From positions 144,702-208,701 of the forward strand of contig CAJUGX010000001.1 in NCBI GenBank assembly GCA_910586385.1: DNA of 64,000 nt. The letters are read 5' to 3'. Below, piece by piece: positions 36,996 through 37,217 of the stretch. The position numbers and the translations under genes are program-made. The DNA is from an uncultured Christensenella sp. GTDB taxonomy: Bacteria > Bacillota > Clostridia > Christensenellales > UBA1242. The notes under the pieces were generated by a model. That model made no database searches. It saw only the letters and a list, made by a program, of their open reading frames with translations, and was not told the DNA's origin. Numbering within the stretch: position 1 is the stretch's first letter; every line of letters begins with the position of its first letter.

Positions 36996-37217
36996 ATGTT
37001 TAAAAAAATTATGCCAGAATTAAAAACCATAAAAGGTTGTATGGATGAATTAAGGTCGCTTGACAAAAATACCGCAGTAAGCGAGTGATTTATTAGACAA
37101 TTATGCAAAAGTGGAAAAATAGATTGCATAATTAATTCAAGCAAAATTTTAGTTGATGTCAATTCACTTATAATATTTTTAGGTGGAAAAATTATTGAGG
37201 TACCAGATGAAGAATAA
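36996..37217 (+). CDS. xis: Excisionase-like HTH protein; readable only with TGA=Trp
   Basis: AAGGAG lies 8 nt before the ATG. 73 codons with one in-frame TGA (37086). ...NTAVSE-W-FIRQLCKSGKIDCIINSSKILVDVNSLIIFL fits the excisionase HTH pattern. Overlaps the int start by 11 nt. Confidence 0.6.

Follow-up and report, generated by a model that had tools for sequence, protein, structure and literature searches.

In-frame TGA codons in the replication initiator and excisionase-like genes of a small integrative element of standard-code Clostridia

Stop-codon recoding is already known from phages and prophages whose hosts use the standard code. TGA-recoded phages that infect standard-code Firmicutes encode opal-suppressor tRNAs (10.1101/2021.08.26.457843), with a detectable suppressor in only 35% of TGA-recoded phages (10.1101/2021.08.26.457843). 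Recoded prophages with standard-code integrases have also been described (Borges et al., 10.1101/2021.08.26.457843), and the authors speculate that recoding could sense the suppressor tRNAs of other phages (10.1101/2021.08.26.457843). Recoded stops as switches of the phage life cycle have been proposed earlier and not shown.

The element described here lies within a 64-kb window, which is the whole stretch of DNA that was analyzed; other loci are referred to by their L numbers. Like the recoded phages (the TAG-recoded prophages Garnet and Topaz and the TGA-recoded Agate and Jade; 10.1101/2021.08.26.457843), it is found in a standard-code host and has an integrase that avoids the recoded stop, with in-frame copies of that codon in other genes. 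As for the recoded prophages, recoding is proposed to act as a switch between an integrated and an active state. The recoded phages measure 22-200 kb, recode the majority of their structural and lysis genes, keep standard replication genes and in many cases encode their own suppressor tRNA. In contrast, the element comprises 8.3 kb, has neither structural genes nor a tRNA, and recodes only the replication initiator and the excisionase-like gene.

Further similarities exist with PICI/SaPI and P4-like satellites and with integrative mobilizable elements (IMEs) of Firmicutes. These are about 8-10 kb in size and share with our element an integrase, an Xis, an XRE repressor and their own replication initiator, as well as the absence of structural or transfer machinery, interchangeable recombinase modules and a dependence on another element, which is inferred in our case. 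Known satellites sense their helper by protein anti-repressors or transcriptional activators, whereas the signal proposed for this element is the code change of the helper. With the xis-int module of Tn916, the locus has in common the position of xis directly 5' of a tyrosine integrase gene at the element end and insertion into AT-rich targets, where a run of T borders one end, a run of A borders the other and the bases at the junction vary. It differs from Tn916 in being far smaller, in lacking conjugation genes and in its Xis, which has no match to the Tn916-Xis family PF09035.

In the literature searched, we did not find a small non-phage integrative element that recodes only its replicase and its excisionase and has no suppressor. 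The same searches gave no report of a recoded excisionase, of an excisionase depending on stop-codon suppression, or of recoding in a satellite or IME that lacks a tRNA.

Boundaries, mobility and gene content of the element

BLAST alignments of 14 other contigs against the window end at 30549-30552 and 38875-38878. A search for direct att repeats gave only short, AT-rich, chance-like matches, and the boundaries were therefore taken from this comparison of copies. Across the element, the GC content falls from about 0.35 to 0.19-0.30 (host about 36%). The left junction lies directly after a host hairpin, ACAGCCCTTTCGCTGT, followed by T7. The left end may hold an origin of replication and arm sites, although both functions are inferred. 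The coordinates of all features are collected in Table 1.

The element has recently been mobile. Its copies are 93.7-99.96% identical at the nucleotide level, with most of them at 97% or above. They show nine different right flanks and six different left flanks, and occur in three species-representative mouse-gut MAGs ("uncultured Clostridia", "uncultured Eubacteriales"). Four of six left junctions are located in a T-run just 3' of a terminator-like hairpin (30525-30560 in the window; the left junctions of L001, L011 and L028 were also inspected), and the opposite junction is A-rich with variable bases. Insertion after host terminators places rep directly downstream of host transcription units. 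In L011 (3151-3226), which belongs to a MAG, the element was observed just 3' of a tRNA-Val(TAC) gene and a terminator. Since it lies outside the tRNA, this does not represent classical tRNA-targeted integration.

Other genes occupy the cargo slot (32943-33914) in L001, L003 and L011, which are otherwise near-identical copies. An additional Macro-domain gene was observed in L041 (5378-5941). The 326-aa protein encoded divergently from xis-int is a possible candidate for a regulator, a role inferred from its position only.

Table 1. Features of the element, of its serine-recombinase variants and of the neighboring integrative conjugative element (ICE). Positions refer to the window unless another locus is given.
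Feature	Position	Strand	Remarks
Integrative element, about 8.33 kb, 27% GC	30550..38876	+	Copy comparison and GC drop
Left end: T-run, then ATTAATTAATTAATCTAG...	30550..30835	+	AT-rich, non-coding, about 20% GC
rep: HUH rolling-circle replication initiator, 275 aa	30836..31663	+	PF23343 REP_ORF2-G2P; phrog_3584
Conserved 191-aa protein	31854..32429	+	1 TGG; homologs in other copies labeled PF27257 HI_0787_N
XRE-type HTH repressor candidate, 102 aa	32467..32775	-	PF01381 HTH_3, E=4e-5; PHROG transcriptional repressor families
Variable cargo gene, 325 aa, membrane and coiled-coil protein	32944..33921	+	2 TGG; weak membrane-protein matches
Conserved 168-aa protein	34092..34598	+	Sole element gene with a TGA stop
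Three conserved small genes (161, 114 and 56 aa)	34661..35699	+	Trp codons TGG only; no family matches
326-aa protein	35774..36754	-	3 TGG; divergent from xis-int; no family match
xis-like gene, 73 aa	36996..37217	+	ATG 36996, TAA 37215-37217
int: tyrosine recombinase, 477 aa	37207..38640	+	PF00589, E=1.5e-24; phrog_1 integrase, E=6.5e-50
Right end: int terminator hairpin, AT-rich arm, ...CACCAGAGTATTTTATTATT, variable A-rich junction	38641..38876	+	
Serine-recombinase module and small ORF	L021 7310-8945; L041 7914-9867		
ICE: sigma factor	951-1514		
ICE: MobL relaxase	2077-3267		
ICE: T4 coupling protein	3222-5453		
ICE: 1489-aa surface protein			
ICE: VirB4/TraG-like ATPase	12351-14972		
ICE: BspA-type LRR protein			
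ICE: primase	18997-19956		
ICE: C5 DNA methylase	20385-21491		
ICE: tyrosine recombinases	21873-22550, 22768-24045		

Pfam, PHROG and family searches recognized no packaging or capsid-interference genes in the element, and no terS, capsid-remodeling, relaxase or coupling-protein genes. The element showed no nucleotide similarity to INPHARED phages or PLSDB plasmids, and no relatives of Rep or Xis were found in IMG/VR. A pattern for the circular (attP) junction gave 0 hits in IMG/VR, and no xis-carrying contig was circularly permuted. Without an attP junction or a match in IMG/VR, INPHARED or PLSDB, direct evidence is lacking for excision, for packaging and for a helper. The possibility that the element is a filamentous or micro-virus prophage is unsupported, as no Zot-like ATPase or capsid protein was recognized in it and its Rep is only 24-31% identical to the Reps of such phages.

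The neighborhood of the element contains further features. An ICE (1-24418) adjoins a tRNA-Arg(TCG) gene (24344-24418, minus strand), which is the sole tRNA gene in the window; this ICE is a possible mobilization partner for the small element. Just past the tRNA-Arg gene lies a second, separate T4SS coupling-protein gene (24664-26676; PF02534, E=5e-53), possibly a remnant of another conjugative element. On the other side, a giant ORF of 4739 aa with an N-terminal membrane anchor (40345-54564, minus strand) is located downstream of a cardiolipin synthase-like gene (38869-40317), the latter named from sequence only.

Tryptophan TGA codons in xis and rep

The hosts of the element use the standard code. 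Eight of 33 long host ORFs in the window (24%) end in TGA, and the 4739-aa ORF alone contains 29 TGG and no TGA codons. A window written entirely in code 4 is ruled out by these TGA stops and by the absence of in-frame TGA from the long host ORFs. The flanks of other copies (L001, L011, L012 and L013) are likewise standard code.

Within the element, TGA and TGG are split by gene. Eleven element genes contain 24 Trp codons; the five TGA codons all lie in rep and xis, and the 19 TGG codons all lie in seven other genes, a split that random placement would produce with P=2.4e-5. The purine-ending two-fold codons of the element end in A in 80% of cases, and if the other genes could use TGA freely, its complete absence there (0/19) would have a probability of about 7e-14. 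The integrase gene alone has eight TGG and no TGA; other lineages keep 7-8 TGG, and the TGG positions are conserved in lineages whose xis is 66-74% identical.

The in-frame TGA of xis occupies 37086-37088 (codon 31, context GAG TGA TTT). The gene is preceded by a Shine-Dalgarno motif (GGAG at 36984-36987, 8 nt 5' of the ATG), and its end overlaps the ATG of int by 11 nt; int has its own Shine-Dalgarno sequence (GAGGT) 5 nt 5' of its start codon. Downstream of the TGA there is no in-frame ATG, GTG or TTG, so the C-terminal 42 residues of Xis require read-through. A 30-residue entry in the protein database (P0076) corresponds to the N-terminal fragment of Xis up to the TGA.

We examined xis at the DNA level in more than 25 independent metagenome or MAG contigs, and all of them contain this ORF with its TGA; the ORF goes beyond chance, and its TGA does not stem from a sequencing error. 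The TGA is kept at identities of 90% (L028), 74% (L016, L017 and L019), 66% (L015), 64% (L036) and 38% (L027), and L028 has gained a second one at codon 9. Seven homologs with 64-100% identity to the 73-aa protein all have Trp at position 31. Codon 31 is TGG in the relatives L034, L035 and L037, which identifies the meaning of the TGA as Trp. The residue at this position in 95 remote homologs is Tyr in 32, Trp in 27, Asn in 16, Phe in 10 and His in 8. Synonymous sites flanking the TGA vary (GAG/GAA, TTT/TTC, ATT/GTT/GTA, AGA/AGG/CGT) and the TGA remains constant. Codons 32-73, beyond the TGA, are under purifying selection (dN/dS 0.09-0.31, dS up to 0.8). We conclude that the TGA of xis is a conserved Trp codon and not a defect.

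Two other explanations for this codon are ruled out. Selenocysteine does not agree with homologous codons that are TGG (Trp) or encode aromatic residues, and no Rfam match such as a SECIS was obtained. Frameshifting or reinitiation at the TGA does not agree with conservation that stays in frame and with the lack of a downstream start codon. The TGG codons of the three relatives named above also show that a lock through xis is not universal in the family. One of these three relatives, L035, still carries TGAs in rep.

The identity of rep is clear from its match to PF23343 (E=1.2e-15, 58 bits, cut-off 27.8) and from the Rep motifs readable in its translation, which are motif I (xTLTF; KW-ITLTF), the HUH motif (HFHIHI) and the catalytic Tyr (YITKY). 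The gene contains four in-frame TGA codons (30911, 31034, 31247 and 31388) and no TGG. Residue W138, encoded by the TGA at 31247 (KKF-W-GYGF), aligns to a Trp that is invariant in 6/6 aligned Reps, three of which are from standard-code ssDNA phages (inoviruses, microviruses). Compared with the 76% identical gene of L021, all five segments between the TGAs show dN/dS of 0.07-0.21 (dS about 0.7-1.3). The TGAs of rep are Trp codons in a gene that is under purifying selection throughout. The rep of L021 has gained a fifth TGA at codon 241, and the distantly related rep of L035 has three TGAs at differing positions. In L035, we also observed a 62-aa ORF just 3' of rep (1489-1677) with an in-frame TGA at codon 21.

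The element encodes no tRNA, as determined with ARAGORN for the window copy and 13 other loci, and no Rfam RNA was found in it. Neither the window nor any fetched flank contained a UGA-decoding factor, whether a suppressor tRNA, a code-4 phage or another.

The single TGA stop of the element, that of the 168-aa protein, is backed by TAA (TGA TAT TAA TAA TAA; 34584-34610), and a TGA-x-TAA tail is also present in L001, L002, L003, L021, L028 and L041. In L035, two genes (1657-2043, minus strand, and 3753-4139) were observed to have a TGA stop directly followed by TAA (TGA TAA twice). It is possible that such backup meets the need of a genome that is sometimes read with UGA as Trp. The sample is small, and 3/8 host TGA stops also have TAA or TAG within three codons.

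The Xis-like protein and alternative recombinase modules

We regard the 73-aa protein as likely to be Xis-like, with an excisionase-type winged HTH; its function as a directionality factor is inferred. Direct searches gave no model match for the query in Pfam, NCBIfam or PHROG, and the query and its seven close homologs had no match to PF12728 or TIGR01764 even at E<=10. A profile of the query family retrieved 603 homologs, of which 95 remote ones were used (E 3e-19 to about 2e-7). Among these, 30/95 match PF12728 HTH_17 (best 1e-5) and 32/95 match TIGR01764 "excisionase family" (best 1.4e-7). Membership in a curated family is therefore supported by transitive homology only. A profile of the 95 homologs had no match among PDB sequences.

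The AlphaFold2 model of Xis (pLDDT 76) shows a beta-alpha-alpha-beta-beta-alpha winged HTH with the elements E9-11, H12-22, H30-39, E44-46, E51-54 and H55-61. Helix 2 spans residues 30-39, and W31 lies at its start. The top fold match in the PDB is Xis of mycobacteriophage Pukovnik (4j2n; probability 0.90, rmsd 2.2 A, 51 aligned columns), followed by BldC. The best Foldseek E-value is only 0.3 and no match is significant, which we attribute to the length of only about 50 residues. Like the PF12728/TIGR01764 excisionases, such as Pukovnik Xis, the protein is a small winged HTH whose gene lies directly 5' of, and overlaps, an integrase gene. It differs from them in falling under every curated cut-off, and its subfamily is a divergent one that is marked by the signature RTI...EIK..D..TA[IV][ST]E[WY][FY]IR.LC. 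A co-oriented small ORF and recombinase gene at the element end are also found in L015, L016, L027, L034, L035 and L037.

A sequence-only reading had previously described the ORF at 36996-37217, its in-frame TGA, its own Shine-Dalgarno sequence and the overlap with int. All of these held, and the translation is identical. Its placement of the TGA at the start of a presumed recognition helix also held in the AlphaFold2 model. The claimed excisionase-like HTH identity is supported via remote homologs, fold and the position overlapping int; the table-4 translation of the query itself reaches no curated cut-off of the excisionase or HTH families. The claim of promoter-like hexamers for xis on the plus strand failed. 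TTGAAC-17-TAATAT scores 8/12, below the pass mark of the scan, and the sole match in 36700-37300 is on the minus strand (36910-36882); shuffles of this AT-rich region average 3.8 hits, which puts the hexamers at chance level. The reading was also incomplete, since it missed the four TGAs of rep, the family-wide pattern and the TGA in an unrelated ORF of the serine-recombinase variants.

In these variants (L021, L022 and L041), a large serine recombinase replaces the tyrosine integrase. The ORF overlapping the start of the serine recombinase gene encodes 61-62 aa, is unrelated in sequence to Xis and contains one in-frame TGA, which is codon 30. A homolog with 71% identity retains this TGA, and the sequence beyond it is conserved as well. 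It is likely that two unrelated candidate directionality factors have converged on the same in-frame TGA device, with the directionality function inferred for both.

A proposed lock on excision and replication

On balance, and by no wide margin, we favor a reading in which excision and replication of the element are locked until UGA-to-Trp decoding arrives in trans, with a TGA-recoded phage as the leading candidate for the supplier. Both the switching itself and the nature of the supplier are inferred. In this view, the UGA codons in xis and rep would make the excision and replication module untranslatable in a standard-code host, and every other gene, including those for the integrase and the regulators, uses UGG and would be translatable there. 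After entry, Int without Xis would direct recombination towards integration. Rep would be unable to nick or fire the integrated origin, despite the fact that rep faces read-through from the upstream host gene. Excision and replication would occur only in a cell state that reads UGA efficiently as Trp. The sequence-only reading had already stated that Xis requires UGA suppression and that int is translated independently, which fits all results. Its further claim, that the element can integrate and cannot excise unless UGA is suppressed, remains an inference in the absence of an excision assay.

Since the element has no tRNA, UGA decoding would have to come in trans. Most plausibly, a TGA-recoded (code 4) phage that infects or resides in the same cell would provide its opal-suppressor tRNA, and the element would then be satellite-like; alternatively, a suppressor of the host or of another mobile element could serve. 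We put the code-4 helper phage first because TGA-recoded phages of Firmicutes with suppressor tRNAs, and the speculated sensing of such tRNAs, have been described.

Several alternatives to this lock were considered. Leaky termination could act as an attenuator, with the host tRNA-Trp(CCA) misreading UGA such that Xis amounts to a few percent of Int and Rep is vanishing, which would set a very low rate of spontaneous excision and replication without any trans factor. Low-level read-through of UGA by tRNA-Trp is established in Bacillus subtilis and E. coli. In favor of this explanation, no suppressor was found in the window or the fetched flanks, and with only one TGA in xis the Xis:Int ratio would be low, which suits an integrated element. 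We nevertheless consider it unlikely. Rep has 4-5 TGAs, and read-through of 1-5% per codon would lower its yield to 1e-8 to 6e-6 of normal. The gains of TGA at codon 241 of the L021 rep and codon 9 of the L028 xis would each cost 20-100-fold, yet the element is still widespread. Across lineages, TGA makes up 4/4, 5/6 and 3/4 of the Trp codons of rep, near the 80% A at neutral purine-ending sites and as expected under efficient UGA decoding, which fits reading in a UGA-permissive state better than a leaky attenuator. Additionally, the nucleotides around the TGAs have no shared leaky context.

An opal suppressor encoded by the host, an ICE or a plasmid, possibly inducible, would make the element a conjugatively moved integrative mobilizable element. 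Small size, a Rep doubling as relaxase and swappable Tyr/Ser modules are typical of Firmicutes IMEs. This explanation is supported by the ICE with MobL relaxase, T4 coupling protein and VirB4-like ATPase at 1-24.3 kb of the window, by the second coupling-protein gene at 24664-26676 and by the interchangeable Tyr/Ser recombinase modules among the copies. Further, an ICE at a distance of 6 kb suits conjugative mobilization and makes a phage-supplied tRNA less obvious. However, the window encodes no tRNA besides tRNA-Arg(TCG), none of the fetched flanks contains a tRNA(UCA), and a constitutive host suppressor would not sit easily with the TGA stops of 24% of host genes. We regard a supplier of this kind as improbable.

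Still weaker is a dual-host cycle, in which the element would replicate and excise in a code-4 bacterium (a Mycoplasmatales-type gut organism) and come close to a dead end in standard-code Clostridia. The GC content of 27%, the membership of Rep in PF23343, which is named after plectrovirus ORF2 and the inovirus gene II protein, and the assignment of code 4 to element-carrying contigs by gene callers would agree with such a cycle. Against it, 19/19 Trp codons outside rep and xis are TGG in spite of the 80% A bias (P about 7e-14), which indicates that those genes are selected to work in standard-code cells. Every recovered flank is standard code (window, L001, L011, L012 and L013), and none of the nine insertion sites found is in a code-4 context. 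We judge this explanation very unlikely. Finally, it is all but excluded that the element is decaying, with xis and rep as its pseudogenes, or that the TGAs are assembly errors. Both genes are truncated under the host code and the 30-aa product exists as a database entry (P0076), but more than 25 independent assemblies were examined and all of them show these TGAs, each TGA lies within sequence that has dN/dS values of 0.07-0.31 on either side, no copy has frameshifts or TAA or TAG stops, and near-identical copies are present at nine sites in several species.

The lock can also be read more boldly, as a satellite that senses its helper by genetic code, with Xis and Rep translated only after a TGA-recoded phage has set UGA to Trp. 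We are inclined slightly against rather than for this version. If true, the satellite would excise and replicate exactly when the recoded late genes of its helper are expressed. Stop-codon reassignment would then act as a signal between elements, a parasite-on-parasite mode of sensing that was not found in the literature searched.

Annotation under the standard code truncates xis and rep, and such elements are thereby mis-annotated as defective. The element offers a minimal and directly testable system, since it has five opal codons in two genes and lacks its own suppressor, its host uses the standard code, and excision and replication provide a clear read-out. If the lock is real, it would represent a new answer to the directionality problem, with Int acting without Xis on entry and with Xis on exit, and it would mean that a change of genetic code is sensed by a second mobile element.
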